Of a stretch of DNA of 64,000 bases, positions 17,235 to 53,290 are shown piece by piece. The translations under genes and the position numbers were made by a program. Each line of letters starts with the position of its first letter. Positions within the stretch are counted from its first letter, which is position 1. Below the pieces are notes generated by a model. The model was not told the origin of the DNA, ran no database searches, and saw only the letters and a program-made list of their open reading frames with translations. This DNA comes from an uncultured Pseudomonadota bacterium. Lineage in GTDB: Bacteria; Pseudomonadota; Alphaproteobacteria; RF32; CAG-239. The stretch lies in NCBI GenBank assembly GCA_902763535.1, contig CACWSG010000004.1:7568-71567 (forward strand), given 5' to 3'.

Positions 17235-17897
17235 TTACAAGCCGCACAGTATTGCAACACCGCAAAGTATAATGGTCAATCCGGCCAACTCGTGCGTCCA
17301 GTTTTCCAATTTGTGCCAATGCAATTTTTGCAATCCCAGCAAGCCGATTGACACCATTGCCATCATCGCCGCAATTGTTGCAACCGAAAAAATAAAGGTT
17401 GAGCTGATGACGGCTTTGGTGCTCAAGACGCTTGCCGCGGTTAAAATCGGCAACAAAGCTTCACATGGGCCCAATACAAAAATAATAAAAATCACCCAGA
17501 CACTGATGTTTTTATCTTTGGGCAAATCATGGTGATGATGATTGTGCGGAGCGCGTAATTTGTGTTGCAACTTGTGTCGCAAGGCAAAAATTATATAAAC
17601 CACACCCAGTACAATCAAAGCCCAAGCCGCCACATCCGAGCGATGTTCTTCCAACCACGCAAACTGCTCTTGATTCAAAAAATGCGACAGATAGACAAAG
17701 CCCAAAGCAATCAACAAAGCACTGCCGATATGCCCGATACCGCATATAAAAGTCCACAGCAAAGTTTTTTTCAAACTGTAATTGCGAGCTTTGGCAATGG
17801 CGATAAACGGCAGATAGTGATCCGGTCCGGTAACTGTGTGAATGACGGCAGTCAAAAAAGCGGTCAACCACAATGAATAAATTGTAATATGTGTCAT
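17235..17897 (-). CDS. His-rich-loop membrane protein, probable Ni/Co transporter (NicO/RcnA-like)
   Basis: 6 TM helices, HTVTGPDH in TM1, GPCE in the second half, cytoplasmic loop APHNHHHHD. Sits at the end of the lar cluster. Confidence 0.5.
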   Translation of the reverse strand: MTHITIYSLWLTAFLTAVIHTVTGPDHYLPFIAIAKARNYSLKKTLLWTFICGIGHIGSALLIALGFVYLSHFLNQEQFAWLEEHRSDVAAWALIVLGVVYIIFALRHKLQHKLRAPHNHHHHDLPKDKNISVWVIFIIFVLGPCEALLPILTAASVLSTKAVISSTFIFSVATIAAMMAMVSIGLLGLQKLHWHKLENWTHELAGLTIILCGVAILCGL

Positions 17898-17917: not shown

Positions 17918-18748
17918 TTAAATTGTTCTTGTTTTTTTTAAGGTCTCATTCATGCTGCCGGTGCGATAACCTTTTAGGTCGAGAGTTGTATAAGCAAAAC
18001 CCATTTCGGTAAACTCATTATTGATTTTTTGGCGTACATTATCGACCATAATTTTAGCAAAGTCTTCCGGCAAAATTTCTATTCGAGCTAAATTGCCATG
18101 AATTCGCACCCTAAACTGTCTAAATCCCAAATTAAGCAAAAGCTGTTCAGCCTTATCAACCATCATCAGTTTTTCTTTGGTGATTGTTTCGCCATAAACA
18201 AAACGCGAGGCCAAACAGGCAAAAGATGGTTTATCCCAAGTCGGCAACCCCATTTCTTTTGAAATGTCGCGAATGTCTTGTTTGGAAAGATTACAATCCC
18301 GCAAAGGGCTTTTGATGTTTTGTTCACTCAATGCCTGCAATCCGGGACGATAATCTCCCATATCATCCAAATTGGAGCCTTCAACAATATGCTCAAATCC
18401 TTTATCCAAAGCAATTTTTTTGAGTTGCGTAAAAATAGCCGACTTGCAAAGATAACAACGATTAGCAGGATTTTTTACCACTGCATCATTATGCAGAATA
18501 TCTATCGGTACAATGATATGATTTATCTTTCGGTTGGCACAAAATTCTTTCGCTTCGTCCATTTCGCGCAGTGGGAAAAAATCTGATATTGCAGTCAAAA
18601 CCAGCAATTTATTGGAAGGCAAAACTTCTTTTGCTACCGCGACCAAAAAGGTTGAATCAACTCCGCCGGAGAAGGCTATTGCAACCGATTCCAAATTTTT
18701 AAGGTAGCACTTTAAATCCGCCAACTTTTGTTCTAAATCTTTATTCAT
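17918..18748 (-). CDS. larE: LarE, ATP-dependent sacrificial sulfur transferase (PP-loop)
   Basis: Likely start is MNKDLEQ at 18748, an 8-nt overlap with the larC stop. PP-loop SGGVDS. SFACLASRF contains the conserved Cys. Confidence 0.8.
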   Translation of the reverse strand: MNKDLEQKLADLKCYLKNLESVAIAFSGGVDSTFLVAVAKEVLPSNKLLVLTAISDFFPLREMDEAKEFCANRKINHIIVPIDILHNDAVVKNPANRCYLCKSAIFTQLKKIALDKGFEHIVEGSNLDDMGDYRPGLQALSEQNIKSPLRDCNLSKQDIRDISKEMGLPTWDKPSFACLASRFVYGETITKEKLMMVDKAEQLLLNLGFRQFRVRIHGNLARIEILPEDFAKIMVDNVRQKINNEFTEMGFAYTTLDLKGYRTGSMNETLKKTRTI

Positions 18749-20027
18749 AATACTCTTTGCTTTCAGCTTTTTGTTGCGCGGCGGTAAAAATTTCGTGAAA
18801 CGAAGCACCCGATTTCAGCGCCAATTCTTTAACACTTTCATATTCCGGCTGACAACGGATAATGTCTTTATAGGTGGAAATTTTGACCTTTACCTCGCCA
18901 TTTTGCAATTTTACTTTAACAATTTTACGCTCCATGCAAGAACGATCCACCATATATTTGCGCAAACCGATTGTCGATGTATGGCGAAAGACGGCATCTT
19001 CAACTTTTGCCAAAGCAGCGCCATTGGTAATTGCCCGCAACATATACGCCGGACGGCACTTTTTCATATAACAGGGCTCAAAATGCACATCAAAAGCACC
19101 GGCTGAAAAAATTTGTTCCATTGCAAAACCCAGTTCTTCAGGTGTTGAGTCGTCAATATTGCTTTCTACCACCCACATCTGGTCGTCATCCGAAACATCT
19201 TCAATCAGCATAATGCGCAAAAAATTAGCTTTGCCAAAGTCGCGTTTGCCTAATCCGATGCCTGATTTTAAGATTTTGTATTGTGCCGGCAATCTGTCAT
19301 GCGTTTTTATGGCTGCGGCAATAGCTATGCCGGTAGGGGTAACCATTTCTCCTTTTACGGCACTGGAGCGCAAAACAATACCTTCGGCTTGTGCAATATT
19401 AAACACGGCCGGAACCGGTACGGGAAGCTCACCATGCTGGCACATAATAGTGCCTTCACCCTCGGTCAAACCGCAGACAATGCAATTCTCTATTCTCAAA
19501 TCATCAATCAACACAGCTGCTGAAATAATATCGACTATTGAATCAATTGCGCCGACTTCGTGAAAATGCACTTCTTCTTTTTTCACTCCGTGAGCTTTGG
19601 CTTCGGCAACAGCCACGATGTCAAAAATTTTTTTAGCCAATGTTTTGGCTTTATCGCTCATATCAGCACTGTCAATAATAGCAATAACATCATTCAAGTG
19701 GCGATGCTGATGGTGATGGTGCTCATGTTCATGATGATGTTCATGTTCATGTTCATGTTCATGATCGTGATGATGGTGCTCATGTTCATGATGATGCTCA
19801 TGATAATGTTCTTCATGCGGTGCATCTTCATGATGGTGTACGGCAAAATCAAGTCCGGCAATGCTGTATGAATTTTTATGCTCAATGTGATAATGAAATT
19901 CATCGGAATTAAGACTGCGCAAAGCCTTTTCCATTTTTTCTTTTGCTGCTCCCATATTCAAAAGAGCGGCCACCGTCATATCGCCGGAAATTCCGCTTGC
20001 ACCTTCAATATAGAGATATTTAGTCAT
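18741..20027 (-). CDS. larC: LarC, nickel insertion (NPN cyclometallase), DUF111 family
   Basis: N-terminal GASGISGDM. Very long His/Glu tract (HHHEDAPHEEHYHEHHHEHEHHHHDHEHEHEHEHHHEHEHHHHQHRH). DUF111-type C-terminus. Confidence 0.85.
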   Translation of the reverse strand: MTKYLYIEGASGISGDMTVAALLNMGAAKEKMEKALRSLNSDEFHYHIEHKNSYSIAGLDFAVHHHEDAPHEEHYHEHHHEHEHHHHDHEHEHEHEHHHEHEHHHHQHRHLNDVIAIIDSADMSDKAKTLAKKIFDIVAVAEAKAHGVKKEEVHFHEVGAIDSIVDIISAAVLIDDLRIENCIVCGLTEGEGTIMCQHGELPVPVPAVFNIAQAEGIVLRSSAVKGEMVTPTGIAIAAAIKTHDRLPAQYKILKSGIGLGKRDFGKANFLRIMLIEDVSDDDQMWVVESNIDDSTPEELGFAMEQIFSAGAFDVHFEPCYMKKCRPAYMLRAITNGAALAKVEDAVFRHTSTIGLRKYMVDRSCMERKIVKVKLQNGEVKVKISTYKDIIRCQPEYESVKELALKSGASFHEIFTAAQQKAESKEYYE

Positions 20028-20700
20028 TATTTTTTCCTTTTAATTTGAGAATGCGAAACGCTTGCACCGCAGCCCCAAAACCATTGTCAATATTGACAAC
20101 CGATACCCCCTCAGCACAGGAATTTAACATTGCCAAAAGCGCAGACAGCCCGCCTAAAGAAGCACCATAGCCAACCGAAGTTGGTACGGCAATCACCGGC
20201 GAACTTACCAATCCTGCCACTACCGAGGCAAGCGCACCTTCCATGCCGGCAACCGCAATTATAACATCATTTTGGCGGATATCCTCGATTTTGCTCAACA
20301 AACGGTGCAGTCCGGCTATTCCGACATCATAATGGCGTGATACTTCGCTTCCGAAAAATTCCAAAGTTTTGGCAGCTTCTTCCGCCACCGGCAAATCAGC
20401 CGTTCCTGCACAGCAGACTGCGACTTTGCCGCCGACATTGGGTAAAGGCTCACCTAAAGTTAAAACTTTTGATGTTACATCATATTCAACAGCCAATCCG
20501 TTGGAGACCACAAAGTCAGCCTGTTCTTGGGAGCATCGCGTTCCCAAAACCGCACAATTTTTTTTCTGAAAAGTGCGCAAAATTTCTACTAACTGCTCCT
20601 TAGTTTTGCCGGCACAAAAAATTGTTTCCGGCAATCCGGTGCGCTCTTTTCTACTCAAATCGAGTTTGGCAAAACCTATGTCTGTATATGTATCGGCCAT
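20020..20700 (-). CDS. larB: LarB, NaAD carboxylase/hydrolase (PurE-like)
   Basis: AIR-carboxylase-like core VAVCCAGTADLPVAEEA ... AVAGMEGALASVVAGL ... PVIAVPTSVGYG. Start shares one base with the flavodoxin stop (TAATG). Confidence 0.85.
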   Translation of the reverse strand: MADTYTDIGFAKLDLSRKERTGLPETIFCAGKTKEQLVEILRTFQKKNCAVLGTRCSQEQADFVVSNGLAVEYDVTSKVLTLGEPLPNVGGKVAVCCAGTADLPVAEEAAKTLEFFGSEVSRHYDVGIAGLHRLLSKIEDIRQNDVIIAVAGMEGALASVVAGLVSSPVIAVPTSVGYGASLGGLSALLAMLNSCAEGVSVVNIDNGFGAAVQAFRILKLKGKNND

Positions 20701-21278
20701 TATTTTACATCAAATCCCAAACCTTTAAGCCAATCGGCAATTCCCATTGTGCGGTCGTTATAACCGACCCAAGGTGCATCGCTTACTTTGCAGCCTTTGC
20801 ATTGAGCAGTCAAATCGCTGACTGTATTTTGAACACCGCCGCCACCGTGAGTGATGAACGGAATAACAGTTTTACCGCTCAGGTCATAAGCTTGAAGAAA
20901 ACTGGACAATTGCGGAGTGATAGTGCTCCACCAATTGGGAGTACCGATAAATACTACATCATATTGCGCCAAATTCTCAAGTTTTGTTGTCAAGGCCGGA
21001 CGATAATTGTTGGTAATTTCTTCTTTGGCTTGTTGAACCATTTCATTATAATTTTCCGGATAAGTTCCCTCAGTTTTGATTTCAAACATATCGCCGCCGA
21101 TTTTGTCTTGAATGGCTTGAGCAACTTTTTTGGTATTGCCGCTGTACGAATAATAAACAATTAAGACTTTTCCCTCAGCGGATACTTTCTCGCTCGGGGT
21201 TTTTTGCGCCAAGGCTTTATATGTGCCAAACGATGCTGCCGCCATAATTAAAATTGCAATAATCAAATATTTATACAT
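20700..21278 (-). CDS. Flavodoxin-family protein with N-terminal signal peptide
   Basis: Signal MYKYLIIAILIMAAASFGTYKALA. Flavodoxin motifs VLIVYYSYSGNTKKVA, VFIGTPNWWSTI, PFITHGGGG. Confidence 0.75.
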   Translation of the reverse strand: MYKYLIIAILIMAAASFGTYKALAQKTPSEKVSAEGKVLIVYYSYSGNTKKVAQAIQDKIGGDMFEIKTEGTYPENYNEMVQQAKEEITNNYRPALTTKLENLAQYDVVFIGTPNWWSTITPQLSSFLQAYDLSGKTVIPFITHGGGGVQNTVSDLTAQCKGCKVSDAPWVGYNDRTMGIADWLKGLGFDVK

Positions 21279-21303: not shown

Positions 21304-22542
21304 TTAAGCTTCAAAAACTTTTGCAACCTCTTTCATCCAGTCGCTGATTTTTATGTGTTGCGGACAATGTTTTTCACAAGCATGACAATGCAAGCAAGCT
21401 GATGATTTGGTTGAGTTTTTAATAAGGTTACTATAATAAACTTTTTGCACGGTAAAGGGCTTATCACTGCGTTCTTGTTTTTCGGCATTATAGAGGGCAA
21501 ACATCGCCGGAATATCAATCTTCATCGGGCAATATTCAACACAATAACGGCAAGCCGTACAAGGAATAGCAATTGCCGAATGCAGTTCTTTTACTGCATT
21601 TTCAACCACTTTGTATTCATCGCTGGTCAAAGGCTTAAAGTTTTGCATATAAGAGGTATTGTCCTCCAATTGTTCCATGGTGGTCATGCCGGATAGTACC
21701 ATCATCACTCCATCTAATGAGGCAGCATAACGAATTGCCCAAGAAGCCGGAGACATATCAGGTTCGGCATCCTTAAATACTTTTTCAACTGCCGGAGGAA
21801 CTTGGGCCAATGATCCGCCTTTAACCGGTTCCATGACCACAACCGGCAAATTGTATTTTTGCGCTATTTCATAGCACTTGCGCGATTGAATGGAGGTGTT
21901 GTCCCAATCAATATAGTTGATTTGCAACTGCACAAAATCAAGGTCAGGATTCTCTTTAATAACCTCTTCCAACAATTCAGGTGAATCATGGAATGAAAAT
22001 CCGATATTTTTAATCAAACCTTGCTTTTTCTTTTCTTTAATAAAGTTAAAGCTGTTGTGTTTGCGAATTTTATCAATTGTTCCGGCATTAACATTGTGAA
22101 TCATATAATAGTCAAAATATTTTAAACCGGTCTTTTCCAGTTGTTTATTGAAAACTTCTTCTTGTTCGGCTTCAGATTTTAAGTACCCTGCCGGCAGTTT
22201 GCTGGCTACGGTGAAACTATCGCGCGGGTGGCGTTCTACCACGGATTTACGAATAGCAACTTCACTTTCATAGCCCATATACATCCATGCTGTATCAAAA
22301 TAGGTGAAGCCGCGTTCCATAAATTTATCAACCATCTGATTGAGCAATTCATAATCAATTGAAGTCTGATCATCGGGATTTTTCAATGGTAAACGCATAA
22401 ATCCAAATCCCAATTTGTTCTTTGGATTCACAACAGCTTTTACCTTATCGGATACGGCAATTGTTTCACCGAATGTTAATTTGGGCAAAGCAGCACAGGC
22501 AAAAAAGGCTAAAGTACTCATTAAAAACTCGCGACGATTCAT
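21304..22542 (-). CDS. Aldo/keto reductase with C-terminal 2x[4Fe-4S] ferredoxin domain and twin-arginine signal
   Basis: MNRREFLMSTLAFFACAALP matches RRxFL plus an h-region. AKR TIM-barrel motifs (FDTAWMY, GFSFHD). CTACRYCVEYCP and CLHCHACEKHCP. Confidence 0.8.
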   Translation of the reverse strand: MNRREFLMSTLAFFACAALPKLTFGETIAVSDKVKAVVNPKNKLGFGFMRLPLKNPDDQTSIDYELLNQMVDKFMERGFTYFDTAWMYMGYESEVAIRKSVVERHPRDSFTVASKLPAGYLKSEAEQEEVFNKQLEKTGLKYFDYYMIHNVNAGTIDKIRKHNSFNFIKEKKKQGLIKNIGFSFHDSPELLEEVIKENPDLDFVQLQINYIDWDNTSIQSRKCYEIAQKYNLPVVVMEPVKGGSLAQVPPAVEKVFKDAEPDMSPASWAIRYAASLDGVMMVLSGMTTMEQLEDNTSYMQNFKPLTSDEYKVVENAVKELHSAIAIPCTACRYCVEYCPMKIDIPAMFALYNAEKQERSDKPFTVQKVYYSNLIKNSTKSSACLHCHACEKHCPQHIKISDWMKEVAKVFEA

Positions 22543-22577: not shown

Positions 22578-22608
22578 ATTGTAAAATTTAGAGCTTACTC
22601 TAAGTCAA
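22578..22608 (-). promoter_or_regulatory. MerR-type promoter/operator, site A (upstream of the AKR-lar operon)
   Basis: Minus strand: TTGACT-TAGAGTAAGCTCTAAATTT-TACAAT. The spacer is 19 nt and the dyad is TTAGAGT-AA-GCTCTAA (one arm mismatch). The -35 overlaps the tatC stop codon. Confidence 0.6.
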
Positions 22609-23321
22609 GATTTTTTTTGTTGTTTTTTTAATTTTCCAAAATACAGTCCTAATTCAAATAGAGCATAAGTCGGTAAAGTTAACATCAGTTGACTCACAAC
22701 ATCCGGAGGTGTCAAAACTCCCGCCAAAATCAGAATGCCCACAAAAACATAAGTTCTTTTGTTTTTAATCGCTTCATAAGCGACAATATCATTGGTAATC
22801 AGCGCATAGGTTATCAGCGGAAATTGAAAACATATCCCGAAAATCAGTGCCAGCCACAAAGCCAAACTTATCACATTCGATATTCCAAACACTGCCGTTA
22901 TATTGTCGGTAGCAAAACTAAGTCCGAATTTTATAATCATCGGCAAAATAAAAAACAGACAAAACATCACCCCGATTATAAACAATGTGCTGGAAATTAA
23001 AACAATTGACCGAATAAACCGACGCTCATTATCATATAATGCCGGCAAAACAAAATTCCAAATTTGTTTTGCAATATAAGGAAAGCAAACCAATATATCC
23101 AGCACTAAAGCTGTTTTAATTTGCAAAATAAAAACTTCCATCGGTGAAAAATAGTTCAGGCTGACACTTTGTCCGTCAATCATAACCTTAATCAGCCAAT
23201 TAATTACCTGTGGCGCAACAAAAAACAACGGCACAATGCCGATGGCCAAAGAAAGCAAACACTTTATCAGTGTTGAGCGCAATGCCTCCAAATGTGCTAT
23301 AAGACTTTTGTCTTCATCCAT
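22605..23321 (-). CDS. tatC: Twin-arginine translocase subunit TatC
   Basis: 238 aa, 6 TM, N-terminus LIAHLEALRSTLIK typical of TatC. Directly abuts the tatA stop. Confidence 0.85.
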   Translation of the reverse strand: MDEDKSLIAHLEALRSTLIKCLLSLAIGIVPLFFVAPQVINWLIKVMIDGQSVSLNYFSPMEVFILQIKTALVLDILVCFPYIAKQIWNFVLPALYDNERRFIRSIVLISSTLFIIGVMFCLFFILPMIIKFGLSFATDNITAVFGISNVISLALWLALIFGICFQFPLITYALITNDIVAYEAIKNKRTYVFVGILILAGVLTPPDVVSQLMLTLPTYALFELGLYFGKLKKQQKKS

Positions 23322-23528
23322 TTATTTTGACTTTTTTTCTTCTTCGTTTGCTGCTTCCTCAACGCTTTCTTTCAGCTCATTAACTTCGTTTTCAATAGCT
23401 GTCTTGGCTTTTTTGTATTCTGCTTGGGCTTTACCCAAAGCGCGGGCTAATTCAGGAATTTTCTTACCGCCGAACAGTACCAAGACTACGACTAAAATAA
23501 GAGCTATTTCGGTAACACCTAATGACAT
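23322..23528 (-). CDS. tatA: Twin-arginine translocase subunit TatA/E
   Basis: 68 aa. TM plus hinge [16 protein letters not shown], acidic C-terminal tail. Confidence 0.8.
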
Positions 23529-23540
23529 ATTTAATCTCCT

Positions 23541-24839
23541 TTACAAATTTCGATGTTGTTCCACCGGATAGATTGTGATGGCTTCAACCGGACAAGCACT
23601 GTGGCAAGCACCGCAACCGATACATTCTGAAGCATCAATAATCGGTTTTTCGCCTTCCTGTTTGGCTATAATACCTTTGGGACAAGTATGAACACACAAA
23701 CCGCATTCAATGCATTTTTCTTCATCAATCACAGCCATCGCGATTTGGGTATTCTGCTTTTGTTTCAGGCTTATATGCTCAATTGCACCGGAAGGACAAA
23801 CTCTTGCACATTTATTGCAATCATATTTACAGAAATTTTTGCCATAGTCAAGATGAACGACCGGATATTCGTTGTTGGCTTTTTTGATGATTTTCATCGG
23901 ACAGTTGTTTACGCACAAATTACAGTTTAAGCAGCGATTGGCAAAATCATGATAATTTTTGGCTCCGGCCGGAACAATGACTCTTTTAACTTTTTTCGCT
24001 ATATCCTGACTTATTTTAAGACCGGATTTATAAGCTCCTGCCAATGCTCCCAGAACCACAGCGCCAATTAACAGTTTTCGCCGCGTCGGGCTGAAATCCG
24101 GTTGGGGTTTGGGAGCGGCTTTTTGTCTGATAATATGACCTTTAGGGCAGGGAGCCAAGCAACGCAGACATTTCACACAGGTCTCATTATTGATGACTTG
24201 ATTTTGATAATCTATGCTGTTTGAAGGACATCCTCTTGCACACATTCCGCATTTGACGCAACCGGATTCGGCAAATTTTATTTTAAATAACGCAAAACGC
24301 GACAAAAAGCCTAAGATTGCGCCCACCGGACAGATGTTGGTGCAGAAAAAGCGCTTTTTTATAAATGTCAAAATTGCCAATAAAACAAAAAATGTTATCC
24401 CGTAAACCGCAAGAGAAGACAAATTGCCGCTGACGGAATAGGGATCAATATAGCGTATTATTACCGCACTTCCGCCCATCAACAAACCAAACGCAATTAC
24501 CGCAATCAGGTAATGAATAGCATAATGCTTCTGGTAAAAGTTACCTCTTTTCTTTTTCATGCGATGAAAAATCGGTTTATACAACCATAACAACAATTCC
24601 TGTAACAAACCTAAAGGACACAAGGTTGAACAATAAATTCGCCCGAATAATAATGTGATTAGTATTAAAAAAGTCAGTAATACCAAGGCGGTTATTGAGG
24701 GATATATAATGACTCTTTGCACAAGCGGGGCAACTTGCAAATCAAAAAAGGAAATCGGGTAGAAATACCCCAAAAATCCCAACAACATAAAAACACCAAA
24801 ACATATCGCAACTATTCTGCGCAGATAAAAATAAAGCAT
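23541..24839 (-). CDS. Membrane-bound polyferredoxin (NapH/MauN-like, multiple 4Fe-4S motifs)
   Basis: N-terminal TMs with GRIYCSTLCPLG. At least four CxxCxxCxxxCP motifs (CVKCGMCARGCP, CLNCNLCVNNCP, CIECGLCVHTCP, CIGCGACHSACP). Confidence 0.7.
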   Translation of the reverse strand: MLYFYLRRIVAICFGVFMLLGFLGYFYPISFFDLQVAPLVQRVIIYPSITALVLLTFLILITLLFGRIYCSTLCPLGLLQELLLWLYKPIFHRMKKKRGNFYQKHYAIHYLIAVIAFGLLMGGSAVIIRYIDPYSVSGNLSSLAVYGITFFVLLAILTFIKKRFFCTNICPVGAILGFLSRFALFKIKFAESGCVKCGMCARGCPSNSIDYQNQVINNETCVKCLRCLAPCPKGHIIRQKAAPKPQPDFSPTRRKLLIGAVVLGALAGAYKSGLKISQDIAKKVKRVIVPAGAKNYHDFANRCLNCNLCVNNCPMKIIKKANNEYPVVHLDYGKNFCKYDCNKCARVCPSGAIEHISLKQKQNTQIAMAVIDEEKCIECGLCVHTCPKGIIAKQEGEKPIIDASECIGCGACHSACPVEAITIYPVEQHRNL

Positions 24840-24869
24840 ACAACACTCCTTTATTGTGAAATATTCACA

Positions 24870-24900
24870 ACTATAAATTTTAGAGTTTACTCTAAGTCAA
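24870..24900 (-). promoter_or_regulatory. MerR-type promoter/operator, site B (upstream of polyferredoxin-tatA-tatC)
   Basis: Minus strand: TTGACT-TAGAGTAAACTCTAAAATT-TATAGT. 19-nt spacer, perfect dyad TTAGAGT-AA-ACTCTAA. Confidence 0.6.
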
Positions 24901-40215: not shown

Positions 40216-40521
40216 ATGAGCACAATTACTCGTTCTGATGTTGTCGATGCGATATACAGTGAAATAGGTTTATCAAGAAAAGATTCCGGCGATATATTGG
40301 ATATGGTTATTGATGAAATTGTAAAAGAGTTGAGCTCAGGTAATGATGTTAAGTTATCAACTTTCGGTACTTTTTCGTTACATGATAAAAATGCTCGTAT
40401 TGGTCGCAATCCTAAAACCGGTGTTTCTGCGACAATTTCTCCTCGTCGGGTAATTTCTTTCAAAGCATCGCAGACATTGCGTAACCGCATAAATCGTCGC
40501 GGCAAGTATAAAGCAGCTTAA
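40216..40521 (+). CDS. ihfA: Integration host factor subunit alpha
   Basis: HU/IHF fold. GFGTF-like [22 protein letters not shown], 101 aa. Confidence 0.85.
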
Positions 40522-40522
40522 T

Positions 40523-40918
40523 ATGACAGTAAACAAAAGTAAATCTGCATTTCGCACCATTGCTGAACTGGCTGAAGAGCTGGGAGTTGCGACGCATGTT
40601 TTACGTTTTTGGGAAACCAAATTTGAACAAATCAAGCCGATGAAACGCGCCGGTGGACGCCGTTACTATCGTCCTGATGATGTCGAGCTTATCAAAGCTA
40701 TTAAGACTTATCTTTATGACAAAAGGTACACTATTGAGGGTGTGCAGAAGCTTTTTAAGGAAAAAGGCTTAAAAGCTATTTTGGGTGAAGAGATTCAAAA
40801 AGACTTTTTTGCGGAAGCCCCACAAGAAGTCGAATTAAACGAAAATTCCCGTGAGATATTGACACGCATTAAATCATCGCTTGAAGATATAAAAAGCAAA
40901 CTTTTGGAAGCTGTATAG
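40523..40918 (+). CDS. MerR-family transcriptional regulator (ihfA-linked type)
   Basis: [32 protein letters not shown]. Starts 1 nt after the ihfA stop, the conserved alphaproteobacterial arrangement. Confidence 0.8.
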
Positions 40919-41025
40919 TTTTTATTGCATAAAATTTATTTTGTATAACTGTTAGAAAGTGTTTGTATTAAAGCGCACTCTAACAGTTATTTTATATTTG
41001 CTTATAATATTAAGGAGTAATTATC

Positions 41026-42035
41026 ATGATGAGATTTTTGCTGACTTTGTTTTTAACCGTAATAATAGGGAAAAATGTAATGGCTGAAGATATACTAACC
41101 GCAAAAGAACAAGCTATCGCTTATGTGTCATCTTATGCAGCACGCGGCGATCAAATGGGCTTGAAAAAAGCAATTATACAAGGATTGGATAAAGGTGTTA
41201 CTATTAACGAACTTAAAGAAGTTTTGGTGCAGAGCTATGCCTATTGCGGTTTTCCGCGCAGTCTTAACGCATTGTCAACTTTGATGCAGACAGTGGAAGA
41301 ACGCGGCAATAAAGATGAAAAAGGTGCTGAGCCCGGTGCCAAACCGCAAGGAAGCAGCTTGGTATATGGCACGGAAAATCAGACCAAATTAACCGGAGCC
41401 GAGGTAAAAGGTAAACTGTTTGAATTTGCTCCGGCAATTGATGAATACTTAAAAGCCCACTTATTTGGTGATATTTTTGCTCGTGATAATTTGGATTGGA
41501 AAACTCGCGAACTGGCTACTATTGCTATGTTGGCTTCGCGTCAAGGAGTTGAAAGTCAATTGCAGGCGCACATAAATATCGGCAAACATAATGGGTTAAG
41601 TGATGAGCAAATCTCTGAAATCTTGAAAATTGCCTCTAAAACCGGAGCTGAGGCTGTGTTGTTTGGTTTTGGCGAAGAAAATACAGCTTATGCTCAATAT
41701 TTTATCGGTAAAAGCTATTTGCAGCCATTGACATCTGATGGAGTGGGAATGGCAAATGTCACATTTGAGCCCAAGTGCCGCAACAATTGGCATATTCATC
41801 ATAAAGGCGGTCAGATATTATTGGTTGTTGCCGGACAGGGATGGTATCAGGAATGGGGCAAACCGGCACAAAGCTTAAAGCCGGTGATGTAGTGAATATC
41901 CCTGCTGAGACAAAGCATTGGCACGGTGCCGCGGCTGATAGTTGGTTTACCCATATTGCAGTAGCCGTTCCGGCCGAAGGTGCAACAACCGAATGGCTGG
42001 AGCCGGTCAGCGATGAGGAATATAACAAATTGTAG
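41026..42035 (+). pseudogene. Exported carboxymuconolactone-decarboxylase (AhpD-like)/cupin fusion, interrupted by a 1-nt frameshift
   Basis: ORF 41026-41892 ends inside a cupin motif (HIHHKGGQILLVVAGQGWYQEWGKPAQSLK|PVM*). Frame +1 continues it (..LKAGDVVNIPAETKHWHGAA). The shift maps to ttaaag at 41875-41880, and one extra A would restore the frame. Signal peptide MMRFLLTLFLTVIIGKNVMA. Confidence 0.6.
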
Positions 42036-42128
42036 ATTAATCATTTGATATAAATAGCAATACCGCTTGCATCGTAAAACTTTTAGTTTTAATATACAGG
42101 CGGTTTTTGTTTTTATCAGAGGTCTAGT

Positions 42129-45181: not shown

Positions 45182-45310
45182 AGCAAAGTCCTTATTTTTA
45201 TTTGAATATGGGGCATCATAACATAAAAGATGTAAAAAACAATTAAGATAATTAAAAAAATTACTTGATTTTTGTAATTTATGCTGTATGTTTGGCACAT
45301 ATTCAATGCC

Positions 45311-45362
45311 GGGCTCTACGAAAAAAAGATTTTATTATTATGCCGCTATAGCTCAGTGGTAG
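45311..45362 (+). repeat. Duplicate of the tRNA-Thr leader plus tRNA positions 1-21 (pseudo-tRNA fragment)
   Basis: 52 nt match 45488-45539 with 1 mismatch. After gccgctatagctcagtggtag the copy diverges. Confidence 0.85.
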
Positions 45363-45518
45363 TGCTAAGTAAAATTGATACAGTGTATCAATTTTGTCTG
45401 CAAACTCTTTGGAACATCTTAGCGAGAGAGGGCAGCTTAATAGCAACCGAAGCGAGCTTAGATGCCAAAGGCACACCCTTTAAGGGTGGGCTCTACGAAA
45501 AGAAGATTTTATTATTAT

Positions 45519-45593
45519 GCCGCTATAGCTCAGTGGTAGAGCACACCCTTGGTAAGGGTGGGGTCGCAAGTCCGATTCTTGCTAGCGGCACCA
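45519..45593 (+). tRNA. tRNA-Thr (anticodon GGT)
   Basis: Hand-folded cloverleaf: acceptor GCCGCTA/TAGCGGC, D-arm GCTC-AGTGGTA-GAGC, anticodon arm CACCC-TTGGTAA-GGGTG, T-arm GCAAG-TCCGATT-CTTGC, encoded CCA. The T-loop reads TCC rather than the usual TTC. Confidence 0.8.
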
Positions 45594-45755
45594 TTAAAAA
45601 AGCCACCTTTATGGTGGTTTTTTTAATGGTAACATAAGCCAAGAACAGACTTGCGGGGGTAACGCAAAGTCCGAACCGATTTCGCCAAAGCGTGAAATGC
45701 TTTGGCGGCAGAGGACGACAGCGAGCAAATGAGGATTTGCGAGCTGTCATTCGCA

Positions 45756-45810: not shown

Positions 45811-46848
45811 TTACTTTAAATTTTCCTTGAAAAATTGTTCAATTTTATCAAACGGAATTTTGCTCATATTGTCATACAAATCAACATGGTTGGCATCGGG
45901 CACAATATACAATTCTTTGTTATCGCCTTTAAGTTTCTTAAAAGCATCTTCGCTGAAATAGCGGCTATGTGCTTTTTCGCCATGTACTACCAACACCGCA
46001 TTTTTAATAGTGTCGCTATATGCCAAAATCGGTTGAGTAATTAAAGACAATGCCGAAGTGGTATTCCAGTTGCCGTTCGAGTTAATTGAGCGGGGATGAA
46101 AACCGCGCGGTGTTTTATAATATTCAAAATATTCTTTGACAAACAACGGCTCTTCACCGGTCAATTTTTCCGGCAGCCCCGGAGCTTTGGCAAAAGTTCC
46201 TGCTTTATAATCTTTTGTGCGTTGGTTGTTTAGATCCTCACGCAATTTGTATAAATCCTCTTCGCTCATAACATCATTATAGCCTTTGGACGATACTCTG
46301 GTCATGTCATACATCGTTGAGGCTACGGTTGCTTTGATGCGGGTATCTTGTGCCGCGGCATTGAGCCCGAAACCGCCAAATCCGCAAATGCCGATAATAC
46401 CGATTTTGTTTTTATCAACTTGCGGCAAAGTCAGCAAATAATCTACCGCTGCACTAAAATCATCGGTATTGACATCAGGTGAAGCTACATTGCGCGCCTT
46501 ACCACCGGATTCACCGGTAAAAGACGGATCAAAAGCCAAAGTGATAAATCCGCGCTCAGCCAAGGTTTGGGCATATAATCCCGAGGCTTGTTCTTTAACT
46601 GCACCAAACGGACCTGATATGGCAATTGCCGAGCCGTTAATGGCATTTTTGTCTTTAGGCTCATACAAATCACCGGCTAAATCAATGCCAAAGCGATTGG
46701 TAAAACTAACCTTTTTTACTTCAACTTTGTCAGATTTTGCAAACACCTTATCCCAAGACTCGCCATCAGCCGCTATTGCCTTGCCGTTGGGAGCAAATGC
46801 CACACCCAAAGCGGCGATAGAACAAGCGCAAAGATTCTTCAAATTCAT
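45811..46848 (-). CDS. Secreted alpha/beta hydrolase (dienelactone-hydrolase-like, Cys nucleophile elbow)
   Basis: Signal peptide MNLKNLCACSIAALGVAFAPNGKAIA. Nucleophile elbow GICGFGG. C-terminal HVDLY His motif. Confidence 0.7.
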   Translation of the reverse strand: MNLKNLCACSIAALGVAFAPNGKAIAADGESWDKVFAKSDKVEVKKVSFTNRFGIDLAGDLYEPKDKNAINGSAIAISGPFGAVKEQASGLYAQTLAERGFITLAFDPSFTGESGGKARNVASPDVNTDDFSAAVDYLLTLPQVDKNKIGIIGICGFGGFGLNAAAQDTRIKATVASTMYDMTRVSSKGYNDVMSEEDLYKLREDLNNQRTKDYKAGTFAKAPGLPEKLTGEEPLFVKEYFEYYKTPRGFHPRSINSNGNWNTTSALSLITQPILAYSDTIKNAVLVVHGEKAHSRYFSEDAFKKLKGDNKELYIVPDANHVDLYDNMSKIPFDKIEQFFKENLK

Positions 46849-46878: not shown

Positions 46879-46909
46879 AATATAATTATTAGAGTAAACT
46901 CTAAGTCAA
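46879..46909 (-). promoter_or_regulatory. MerR-type promoter/operator, site C (upstream of the alpha/beta hydrolase)
   Basis: Minus strand: TTGACT-TAGAGTTTACTCTAATAAT-TATATT. 19-nt spacer, perfect dyad TTAGAGT-TT-ACTCTAA. Confidence 0.6.
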
Positions 46910-46980: not shown

Positions 46981-47271
46981 ATGCAAGAATTTATCGGATT
47001 AATCGGATCACTTTGTTTTGCTTTCAGCTCTTGGCCGCAAGCGTGGTATTCATGGCGCCACCAAACAGCCAAAGGGGTTAAATGGTCGTTTATATTTTTG
47101 TGGCTTTCGGGGTCATTTTTCAGCACCATTTATGCAATTTATTATCAAAAATATATGTTGCTGCCCAATTATTTGTGCGGTGGTGCAGGGACTTTGGTAA
47201 TTTTGTATGTGCGAATTGTTGAATTTCGAAAACGTCATGATAAAGTTGATCAAAGGAGAAAAAATGCTTGA
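46981..47271 (+). CDS. PQ-loop (SemiSWEET-like) 3-TM protein
   Basis: 96 aa, SSWPQAWYSWR PQ motif in TM1, 3 predicted TMs. Confidence 0.55.
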   Translation: MQEFIGLIGSLCFAFSSWPQAWYSWRHQTAKGVKWSFIFLWLSGSFFSTIYAIYYQKYMLLPNYLCGGAGTLVILYVRIVEFRKRHDKVDQRRKNA

Positions 47272-47530
47272 GTTTATAATTGATATTTGCGGTTGGATTG
47301 GTGCTTTATCCTATTCAATTTATTCTATTCCTCAAGCGACATCAGCAATTCACTTAGGGCGCACTCAAGGGTTGAGCTCCGGCATGGTGATATTGTTGTT
47401 TGGCGGAGCGTTGTGCAGTTTGATTTATATCTTGCCCGATACTTCGTCACCATTGTTTTATAACTTTGGACTTTCGCTGATATCAGCAACTACTATTTTT
47501 CGTTATCACTTTTGGCCGCGAAAAAAATAG
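47264..47530 (+). CDS. PQ-loop (SemiSWEET-like) 3-TM protein, overlapping the previous gene by 8 nt
   Basis: Start MLEFIID at 47264 after AAAGGAGAA. YSIPQATSAIHLGRTQGLS PQ motif. Confidence 0.55.
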   Translation: MLEFIIDICGWIGALSYSIYSIPQATSAIHLGRTQGLSSGMVILLFGGALCSLIYILPDTSSPLFYNFGLSLISATTIFRYHFWPRKK

Positions 47531-52308: not shown

Positions 52309-53290
52309 ATTCCCTTAACCTTGTTTCAATCCATAAAAATTTCGTTTTCAAGTCTGGATCATTTATTTTACCATAATCCATATAATACATACCATTTTTA
52401 TCCTTTTCAATATGCTTGAAAAATTTATTCATATAATCAATTCCTGTTCTGTGAATTGCTGCTAATAATCCGGTATCTGTTATGGTAAAATTAAATTTTA
52501 ATCCTTTATATTTGGAACCTACATATTTTGTTTCTCCAAAGTGAGACAAATATCTATATTGAACTTTCATATATTCGTCTAATATTTGTTCCTGTATAGA
52601 TGGATTATTTAAAAAATCTTCAACAGAATATATACCATTTTTTCCGGTCCATTTATTGTCTTTTGTTAAATATCCTGTATCAATTAGTCCATCTCTGCGT
52701 ATCTGGTACATTCCTAAAGCACCAATTCCCCCACCTGAAGTATTAGTTTTATTATAATTGTTCTTACTTTCCTTATATCCTAATAAGTTACGCATTTTCT
52801 TTGAAAAAATGTAATGTTCATCTTTATGATTTTTATTTCGTATTTCCGATTCATTATTTTTAGCATATTGGGGCAAGCCGGATAAATCAACTTTCGTCAC
52901 ATCAGATTGTTTTACTCTATCCGATTGATATGGCTCTGCCCAGCAACGACAATTATAATCTTCACCGGGATTTCCGCCTTCAGGCGGAATATATTTGTTA
53001 AATATTTTCCCCTCACGTTCAGCGTGTGCGCCGCGAACTTTATCATCTCCTTTCGTGCGCCAAATATAATAATTTTCCGGATTTTCTTTTATATCATAAG
53101 CCAATATCTCTTTGAGTTTCGGATTGGGCGTATTTTCACTTTCAACATCTATTTGTTGCATATCCGAAACGGTTTCGGCATCTCTTGGATCAAGATAATA
53201 CCAATCTGTTTCTCCTTTTCTCTTAGAATCACGTCTAATCGGCTTAAATCCATTCATTCTTTGATATAAATCATTATATAATTCGTTCAT
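52298..53290 (-). CDS. MuF-domain (Phage_Mu_F/SPP1 gp7-like) protein fused to a lysozyme-like/lytic-transglycosylase-like C-terminal domain
   Basis: IWRTKGDDKVRGAHAEREGKIF....PGEDYNCRCWAEPY matches the MuF core (W.T..D.rVR..H..l.G......P....nCRC). The C-terminus has KES-(18 aa)-GALGMYQI, resembling the SLT E-S...GA.GLMQ motif. Preferred start is MNELYN at 53290 after GGAAAGGA; the track start is 53308. Confidence 0.6.
   Translation of the reverse strand: MNELYNDLYQRMNGFKPIRRDSKRKGETDWYYLDPRDAETVSDMQQIDVESENTPNPKLKEILAYDIKENPENYYIWRTKGDDKVRGAHAEREGKIFNKYIPPEGGNPGEDYNCRCWAEPYQSDRVKQSDVTKVDLSGLPQYAKNNESEIRNKNHKDEHYIFSKKMRNLLGYKESKNNYNKTNTSGGGIGALGMYQIRRDGLIDTGYLTKDNKWTGKNGIYSVEDFLNNPSIQEQILDEYMKVQYRYLSHFGETKYVGSKYKGLKFNFTITDTGLLAAIHRTGIDYMNKFFKHIEKDKNGMYYMDYGKINDPDLKTKFLWIETRLREFEK

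Follow-up and report, generated by a model that had tools for sequence, protein, structure and literature searches.

What kind of switch would place a membrane polyferredoxin, two tat genes and a set of genes for a nickel cofactor behind one type of promoter? The question is raised by a 64,000-nucleotide stretch of DNA (the window; GC content 39.5%) from contig CACWSG010000004.1 of an uncultured Pseudomonadota bacterium (assembly GCA_902763535.1), in which a preliminary description had reported two identical MerR-type promoters, here called sites A and B, driving back-to-back operons. Among the closest genome loci are human-gut and ruminant metagenome-assembled genomes (MAGs), and the same sequences are present in public metagenome assemblies. 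We consider these sites, together with two further ones, to be sigma-70-type promoters that are mis-spaced at 19 nt and whose spacer holds an operator of the NmlR/AdhR type of MerR-family regulators; judging from the sequences compared, we give this reading a probability of roughly 80%. Four observations carry it: the architecture of the sites, their conservation across phyla, their linkage to NmlR-like genes and their fit to a published operator.

Four sites with a dyad in a 19-nt spacer

The window contains four sites of this architecture, two of them (C and D) newly found here:

22578-22608, minus strand: site A promoter, reading TTGACT-TAGAGTAAGCTCTAAATTT-TACAAT from 22608 to 22578; -35 TTGACT at 22603-22608, -10 TACAAT at 22578-22583, 19-nt spacer, dyad TTAGAG-TAAG-CTCTAA at 22588-22603
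24870-24900, minus strand: site B promoter, reading TTGACT-TAGAGTAAACTCTAAAATT-TATAGT from 24900 to 24870; -35 TTGACT at 24895-24900, -10 TATAGT at 24870-24875, 19-nt spacer, perfect dyad TTAGAGT-AA-ACTCTAA at 24880-24895
46879-46909, minus strand: site C promoter, reading TTGACT-TAGAGTTTACTCTAATAAT-TATATT; -35 TTGACT at 46904-46909, -10 TATATT at 46879-46884, 19-nt spacer, perfect dyad at 46889-46904
40963-40993, plus strand: site D promoter, the weaker of the new sites, reading TTGTAT-TAAAGCGCACTCTAACAGT-TATTTT; -35 TTGTAT, -10 TATTTT, 19-nt spacer, dyad TTAAAG-CGCA-CTCTAA at 40968-40983

Sites A and B were where the preliminary description had placed them on the minus strand, each with TTGACT, a 19-nt spacer and a TAnnnT hexamer. 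They are not identical, as they agree at 27 of 31 positions and differ at the other four. A 7+2+7 dyad had been ascribed to both; site B has it in perfect form, but the dyad of site A is 6+4+6. The core common to the two, TTAGAG-N4-CTCTAA, begins at the last T of the -35 hexamer and fills the spacer, as had been described. Both sites are real but they are not a pair, because sites C and D share the window with them. The dyad of site D has one mismatch, a G to A change in one half-site. All four sites are intergenic, are correctly oriented and end 30-35 nt ahead of a start codon (30 nt before an alpha/beta-hydrolase gene for site C, 32 nt before a CMD-cupin gene for site D), and the spacer is 19 nt in four of four, with the hexamers taken as sequence matches only. 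The flanks, examined for 10 kb beyond both window ends, contained no further sites.

Such dyads might be chance palindromes, copies of a dispersed repeat or weak terminator hairpins next to constitutive promoters, given that the sequence is AT-rich, that sites A and B come right after stop codons and that a 6-bp hairpin is possible. The counts argue against chance. With up to two mismatches allowed, the dyad pattern had 9 strand-matches in the window, compared with 1.42 expected from shuffles, of which 0 of 100 reached that number, and the full 31-nt pattern had no matches in the shuffles. As RNA, the 6-bp hairpin has a predicted energy of only -4.4 to -4.6 kcal/mol, and this weakness (about -4.5 kcal/mol) ruled out the terminator reading. 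Chance also leaves unexplained why every site points at a start codon at nearly the same distance, and why the architecture is kept across phyla, including hexamers outside the search pattern (see below). We find this explanation scarcely credible.

A fifth dyad match, at 53223, has two mismatches and was treated as chance because it is intragenic and lacks flanking hexamers. An Rfam scan of the window found no riboswitch in the short leaders; its sole match was a tRNA gene (45519-45590), which is overlapped by a probably spurious open reading frame (ORF) of 118 aa at 45281-45637.

The motif in other genomes and the regulator genes beside it

We scanned one genome per species for exact matches to TTGACTTAGAGTNNNCTCTAA, a pattern that does not include the -10 hexamer. 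It is present in the genomes of at least 119 species, from many phyla, against about 17 expected by chance (a uniform-composition estimate). The matches listed include Bacillus, Paenibacillus, Clostridium, lactobacilli, Vibrio, Shewanella and cyanobacteria, as well as Chloroflexota, Actinomycetota, Fusobacteriota and many gut Alphaproteobacteria. At the 119 loci listed, a TAnnnT hexamer stood at the 19-nt spacing in 109, spacers of 16-18 and 20-22 nt had 0-5, and the median distance from the -10 hexamer to the start codon was 32 nt. Because TAnnnT is fixed at 19 nt although it was not searched for, the motif is a conserved promoter and not the dispersed repeat that the preliminary description had named as an alternative. 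The operator is kept almost letter for letter between Firmicutes, cyanobacteria and Proteobacteria; a literature search for the literal motif sequence gave nothing relevant.

A MerR-family gene adjoins the motif in 54 of these 119 loci, as the first downstream gene in 31 and as a divergent gene in 23. Together with the spacing, this comparative evidence upholds the earlier assignment of the sites to MerR-type promoters, in which the dyad occupies an over-long spacer. The MerR proteins beside the motif form one alignable group. The regulator at the gut alphaproteobacterial locus L114 had its best matches among structures of Haemophilus influenzae NmlR (HiNmlR; 5D8C, 5D90 and 5E01, E about 2e-31), and the regulators at L114, L006 and L018 had NmlR (NF041849) as their top NCBIfam match, with 75-99 bits. 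Models of the metal-binding loops of CueR, ZntR, CadR, MerR and SoxR scored far below NmlR on the linked regulators. The closer subfamily is thus the thiol-based NmlR/AdhR group rather than the metal sensors of merT, zntA and copA, which had served as the model in the preliminary description.

An NmlR-like gene stands beside the motif in the gut alphaproteobacterial loci L033, L059, L091, L114 and L116, and the sensing cysteine, in the stretch 'IECLK', is kept in four of four aligned regulators (L033, L059, L091 and L114). This cysteine is absolutely conserved in the NmlR clade, which includes Bacillus subtilis AdhR (PMC4776306). At L033 and L114, the intergenic region that separates the NmlR-like gene from its divergent target holds two dyads, at a distance of about 50 bp. 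One is part of the target's TTGACT promoter, and the second, nearer the regulator gene, may serve autoregulation.

HiNmlR's structure in complex with DNA gave the recognition sequence 8'-YYNGAGNNNNCTCNRR-8 (Counago et al. 2016; PMC5001606), in which a base-pair change in GAG/CTC lowers affinity 10- to 190-fold (PMC5001606). In the 64-kb window this consensus has exactly three matches, which are sites A, B and C (shuffle mean 0.58); site D fails at one position (TTAAAG). The TTAAAG half-site recurs in place of TTAGAG in well-formed TTGACT-N19-TAnnnT promoters, at L233 (1448-1463, the perfect palindrome TTAAAG-TACT-CTTTAA) and in the site B equivalent of L108. It may be a tolerated variant, and it could mark a lower-affinity class or be the sign of a second, paralogous regulator.

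Orthologues of the CMD-cupin gene behind site D were also fetched by protein similarity rather than by motif. The promoter was present in two of three lineages, L233 (TTGACT-TAAAGTACTCTTTAACAAG-TAGATT) and L236 (TTGACT-TCGAGTATACTCTAAAAAT-TATAGT), while in the third, L239, the operon has no motif and lies beside an AraC-type gene. At L111 there is a perfect site. The L239 arrangement implies that regulators do get swapped, and no cognate gene was found in the window or its 10-kb flanks, so that the dyad might be the operator of another family (for example TetR, Rrf2 or AraC) overlapping ordinary promoters. That explanation does not account for the 19-nt spacing, a MerR hallmark, for the frequent MerR neighbours, or for the exact fit of the dyad to the operator from the HiNmlR-DNA crystal structure, and we judge it highly improbable.

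Several points weigh against assigning the sites to an NmlR/AdhR-type regulator. The scores of the relatives' regulators (75-99 bits) are under the 175-bit NmlR equivalog cutoff, which makes these proteins NmlR-like without proving orthology. The -35 elements of the H. influenzae operator fall within the inverted repeat; the sites in the window have the canonical MerR layout instead, with the -35 abutting the dyad at its 5' edge. Site D departs from the consensus at a guanine that is important for HiNmlR affinity. Site B is not kept in all relatives: it is gone in L039 and L055, and its equivalent in L108 keeps TTGACT-N19-TATTAT with a degenerate dyad, so that it is evolutionarily softer than site A. 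In a motif-independent test, homologues of the iron-sulphur (Fe-S) aldo-keto reductase (AKR) behind site A were fetched from metagenomes by protein similarity, and a dyad with up to two mismatches within 280 nt upstream was present at only 7 of 74 loci, a modest enrichment. CTTGACT precedes the dyad in all seven; L125, the only close relative among the 74 (77% identity), carries the motif, and most of the other homologues are distant cytoplasmic paralogues from other phyla. Finally, the preliminary description had looked to a MerR-family gene with the dyad in its own promoter. Other genomes provide such genes, but no NmlR-type gene was found in the window (by phmmer and tblastn) or in the 10 kb on either side of it.

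The window has a single MerR-family gene, the one that had been proposed as a candidate regulator:

40523-40918, plus strand: HU-linked MerR-family gene, encoding a cysteine-free protein of 131 aa

This gene immediately precedes site D, with about 45 nt between its stop codon and the site, and its product might bind all four dyads. The NmlR clade contacts DNA through Tyr/His17, Arg20, Phe/Tyr21 and Lys24 of the alpha-2 helix, and at three of the four equivalent positions the protein has His, Arg and Phe. Yet the protein does not have the features of the NmlR clade. It lacks the sensing cysteine, Thr replaces Lys24, the residue that reads the GAG guanine in HiNmlR, and its best NCBIfam match is the N-terminal domain of CarH rather than NmlR. 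Its orthologues belong to a conserved housekeeping cluster, yceD-rpmF-plsX-HU-MerR, behind which the downstream genes vary and no dyad was found in relatives, and the motif-bearing CMD-cupin orthologues of other lineages do not adjoin a gene of this type. On these grounds it is an unlikely regulator of the sites. It also offers no explanation for the motif in Firmicutes, cyanobacteria and other phyla, in which NmlR-like genes are the motif's neighbours. The pair of HU/IHF-like and MerR genes (40216-40918) is kept behind yceD-rpmF-plsX in gut Alphaproteobacteria (L205-L212), with 73-100% identity among the 120 clusters listed, and the MerR protein has no recognisable sensor region. Two NmlR homologues, P0222 and P0215, were rejected as the regulator of this genome, as they came from other samples. 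With an NmlR/AdhR-type regulator, the cognate gene lies outside the window.

What follows on binding, on the inducer and on activation through untwisting is inferred, as are the regulator's identity and location. An NmlR/AdhR-type dimer on TTAGAG-N4-CTCTAA in the 19-nt spacer would keep the promoter poorly active. Carbonyl, electrophile or nitrosative stress would lead to modification of the conserved cysteine (Cys54 in HiNmlR), and the modified dimer would under-twist and shorten the spacer, allowing RNA polymerase with sigma-70 to engage both hexamers. MerR-type activation by DNA distortion and spacer under-twisting has been reviewed (PMC9909328).

The genes under the four promoters

Site B precedes polyferredoxin-tatA-tatC, and site A precedes AKR-flavodoxin-larBCE and a final membrane protein gene:

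23541-24839, minus strand: membrane polyferredoxin of 432 aa, matching NapH at residues 52-234 (E 2.4e-25) and NapG at residues 249-424 (E 4.7e-16)
23322-23528, minus strand: tatA (PF02416, 2.1e-15)
22605-23321, minus strand: tatC (PF00902, 3.3e-56)
21304-22542, minus strand: AKR with an N-terminal twin-arginine signal (MNRREFL) and a C-terminal Cys-rich domain of the 4Fe-4S type
20700-21278, minus strand: Flavodoxin_4-family protein with an N-terminal signal peptide
20020-20700, minus strand: larB (AIRC)
18741-20027, minus strand: larC (Ni_insertion, 6.7e-125)
17918-18808, minus strand: larE (PP-loop)
17235-17897, minus strand: orf220, at the end of the string, encoding a multi-pass membrane protein that contains the stretch HNHHHH

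Sites C and D have one target each:

45811-46848, minus strand: alpha/beta-hydrolase with a signal peptide, target of site C
41026-42037, plus strand: CMD (AhpD-like)-cupin fusion with a signal peptide, frameshifted, target of site D

The preliminary description had divided the genes behind sites B and A into two operons. The TGA stop codon of tatC sits within the -35 hexamer of site A (tTGAct), which leaves no room for a terminator and makes site A an internal promoter of one 7.7-kb string. From this arrangement, a single transcription unit with two inducible promoters appears to be the better reading of the genes.

These targets had been called unexpected for such a switch, which is true of some of them. 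Among the first downstream genes at 115 motif loci, MerR genes (29) were followed by AKR genes (19, 10 of them with a Fer4 domain), short-chain dehydrogenases (15) and CMD-family genes (14); DXP-synthase-like genes (6), Fe-ADH (5), FMN reductase (5), flavodoxin (4) and DUF362 (4) were rarer. AKR, flavodoxin and CMD genes are thus typical cargo of the motif, and only polyferredoxin-tatAC and larBCE are unusual. Synteny of the string polyferredoxin-tatA-tatC-[motif]-AKR-(flavodoxin)-larBCE extends to L108, L039 and L103, where the place of site A between tatC and the AKR gene is kept, and in part to L055. At L043 and L106 the motif is upstream of an AKR gene and no tatC was seen, while L090 has motif-AKR-polyferredoxin-tatA-tatC with an NmlR-like gene nearby. 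Elsewhere, at L037, L098, L077, L114 and L217-L226 (gut Alphaproteobacteria and one Gastranaerophilales MAG), the motif drives a DXP-synthase/transketolase-like gene of about 580 aa, an unusual member for a carbonyl-stress regulon; at L114 and L217-L226 it is divergent from the NmlR-like gene.

Export signals are present on each of the four enzyme products inspected, of the Sec type on the flavodoxin, the CMD-cupin protein and the hydrolase and of the twin-arginine type on the AKR, in which R3 and R4 are invariant in 8 orthologues. These signals suggest that the genes behind sites A-D serve a periplasmic rather than a cytoplasmic defence, an unusual role for NmlR/AdhR regulons. In the polyferredoxin, a NapH-like N-terminal half is fused to a NapG-like C-terminal half with an RRKLL twin-arginine-like hydrophobic segment at the junction, which suggests that the C-terminal Fe-S half faces the periplasm. 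Its electron acceptor is likely the exported AKR-FeS protein, so that electrons would pass from quinol through the NapH/NapG-like polyferredoxin to the Tat-exported AKR-FeS protein in the periplasm. A dedicated TatAC fits the export of a protein that is folded and loaded with its cofactor in the cytoplasm.

The presence of larBCE (17918-20700), the biosynthesis genes for the nickel-pincer nucleotide cofactor, can be explained by recent work on AKRs. Nickel-pincer (NPMN)-dependent AKRs of the NphT family were discovered through the clustering of AKR genes with larBCE without LarA, in 427 instances (Semersky et al. 2026; PMC13524815). The AKR at 21304-22542 is clustered in the same way with larB, larC and larE and without LarA (among the annotated genes of its operon), as are those in the flanks of L128 and L168. 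The linkage of AKR and lar genes recurs in L039, L108, L128 and L168, of which L128 (larC-larE-larB-AKR-AKR-msrAB) and L168 (AKR-larB-larC-larE) are unrelated lineages. This clustering fits nickel-pincer AKRs and would account for larBCE in the string. LarBCE and the His-rich membrane protein (17235-17897, no Pfam match) probably supply the nickel-pincer cofactor to the AKR, and the membrane protein may be a nickel transporter serving LarC. If the AKR does use this cofactor, the position of cofactor biosynthesis and a His-rich transporter within a stress regulon is explained.

The regulon in view comprises four promoters and the genes for the polyferredoxin, TatA, TatC, the AKR, the flavodoxin, LarBCE, the His-rich membrane protein, the hydrolase and the CMD-cupin protein. 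By family, the AKR, flavodoxin, CMD-cupin and hydrolase fit a regulon that detoxifies carbonyls or electrophiles, and a recognisable electrophile-stress regulon can be assigned to an uncultured gut alphaproteobacterial lineage. More tentatively, the four promoters might define a previously undescribed extracytoplasmic carbonyl-stress module, in which an NmlR-type switch controls a quinol-fed NapH/NapG-like polyferredoxin, from which electrons reach a Tat-exported Fe-S/nickel-pincer AKR whose cofactor is made by the co-transcribed LarBCE, with the exported flavodoxin, CMD-cupin and hydrolase as helpers; we hold this to be possible but doubtful. If it is true, nickel-pincer AKRs gain a physiological context, the periplasmic detoxification of reactive carbonyls, and this would be the first exported, electron-transfer-coupled nickel-pincer AKR.

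Two of the loci show irregular reading frames. The CMD-cupin ORF stops at 41892, and its cupin end runs on in another frame; a 99%-identical protein, P0272, has 336 aa. The frameshift lies near 41878-41882, where the window has ttaaagcc and ttaaaagcc would restore the frame, corresponding to one base lost in an A-run. Either the assembly is in error here or the gene is in early decay, and the gene concerned falls under the weakest of the four promoters. Divergent from site C are two overlapping ORFs (46981-47271 and 47207-47530) with one PQ-loop repeat each; they represent either SemiSWEET-like genes in tandem or a single gene with a frameshift.

Comparison with known systems

The promoter class is already known, and the sequence pattern of NmlR/AdhR operators is already in print as a tool for genome mining. 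What is new is the membership of the regulon, namely the export-signalled enzymes, the NapGH-like polyferredoxin with tatAC, and the AKR with LarBCE.

The closest likeness is to H. influenzae NmlR and its operator at PadhC-estD/nmlR, which shares the core YYNGAG-N4-CTCNRR with the sites described here. HiNmlR and the relatives' regulators are both short MerR proteins without a separate sensor domain. They align over their full length, with Arg20, Lys24 and the position of the sensing Cys54 kept and His/Tyr at the positions of Tyr17/Phe21. The H. influenzae operator differs in that it serves two overlapping divergent promoters, with adhC-estD as targets, whereas the sites in the window have no adjacent regulator gene. 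No adhC or estD homologues were seen among the genes annotated in the window.

B. subtilis AdhR (YraB) is a thiol-based (Cys52) MerR activator that is induced by formaldehyde and methylglyoxal and controls adhA, yraA and the CMD-family gene yraC (Nguyen/Huyen et al. 2009, summarised in PMC4776306). The likeness, one of regulon membership, is between YraC and the CMD-cupin target of site D. The AdhR targets AdhA, YraA and YraC are cytoplasmic, whereas the products encoded behind the sites described here are export-signalled, with Tat components, a NapGH-like polyferredoxin and LarBCE among them. The merT, zntA and copA promoters and the SoxR-soxS promoter have in common with our sites a spacer of 19-20 bp, a dyad lying between the -35 and -10 hexamers and activation by DNA distortion (PMC9909328), but the metal-sensing MerR promoters and SoxR-soxS differ from them in operator sequence and effector.

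The polyferredoxin resembles the NapG/NapH quinol dehydrogenase of periplasmic nitrate reductase systems in its NapH and NapG matches and in the twin-arginine-like segment at their junction. It differs in having both halves in one polypeptide and in scoring far below the family cutoffs, and no nap catalytic genes are present at the window locus.

The AKR is most similar in its setting to the NphT family, in that it is clustered with larBCE and free of LarA. NphT has a His/Lys cofactor motif, H144 and K200 (T142-x-H144) (PMC13524815). Compared by pattern and not by residue alignment, the window AKR has a conserved His in GFSFHD (His185, invariant in 8 orthologues), and at this level no Lys equivalent to K200 was evident. 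MerR is absent from the main text of the nickel-pincer AKR paper, and the native role of these enzymes was not established there (PMC13524815). A carbonyl-stress promoter ahead of an AKR-LarBCE operon offers a concrete hypothesis on their substrates. What sets the window AKR apart from NphT is its Tat signal, its C-terminal Fe-S domain and the company of a NapGH-like polyferredoxin, tatAC and an exported flavodoxin.

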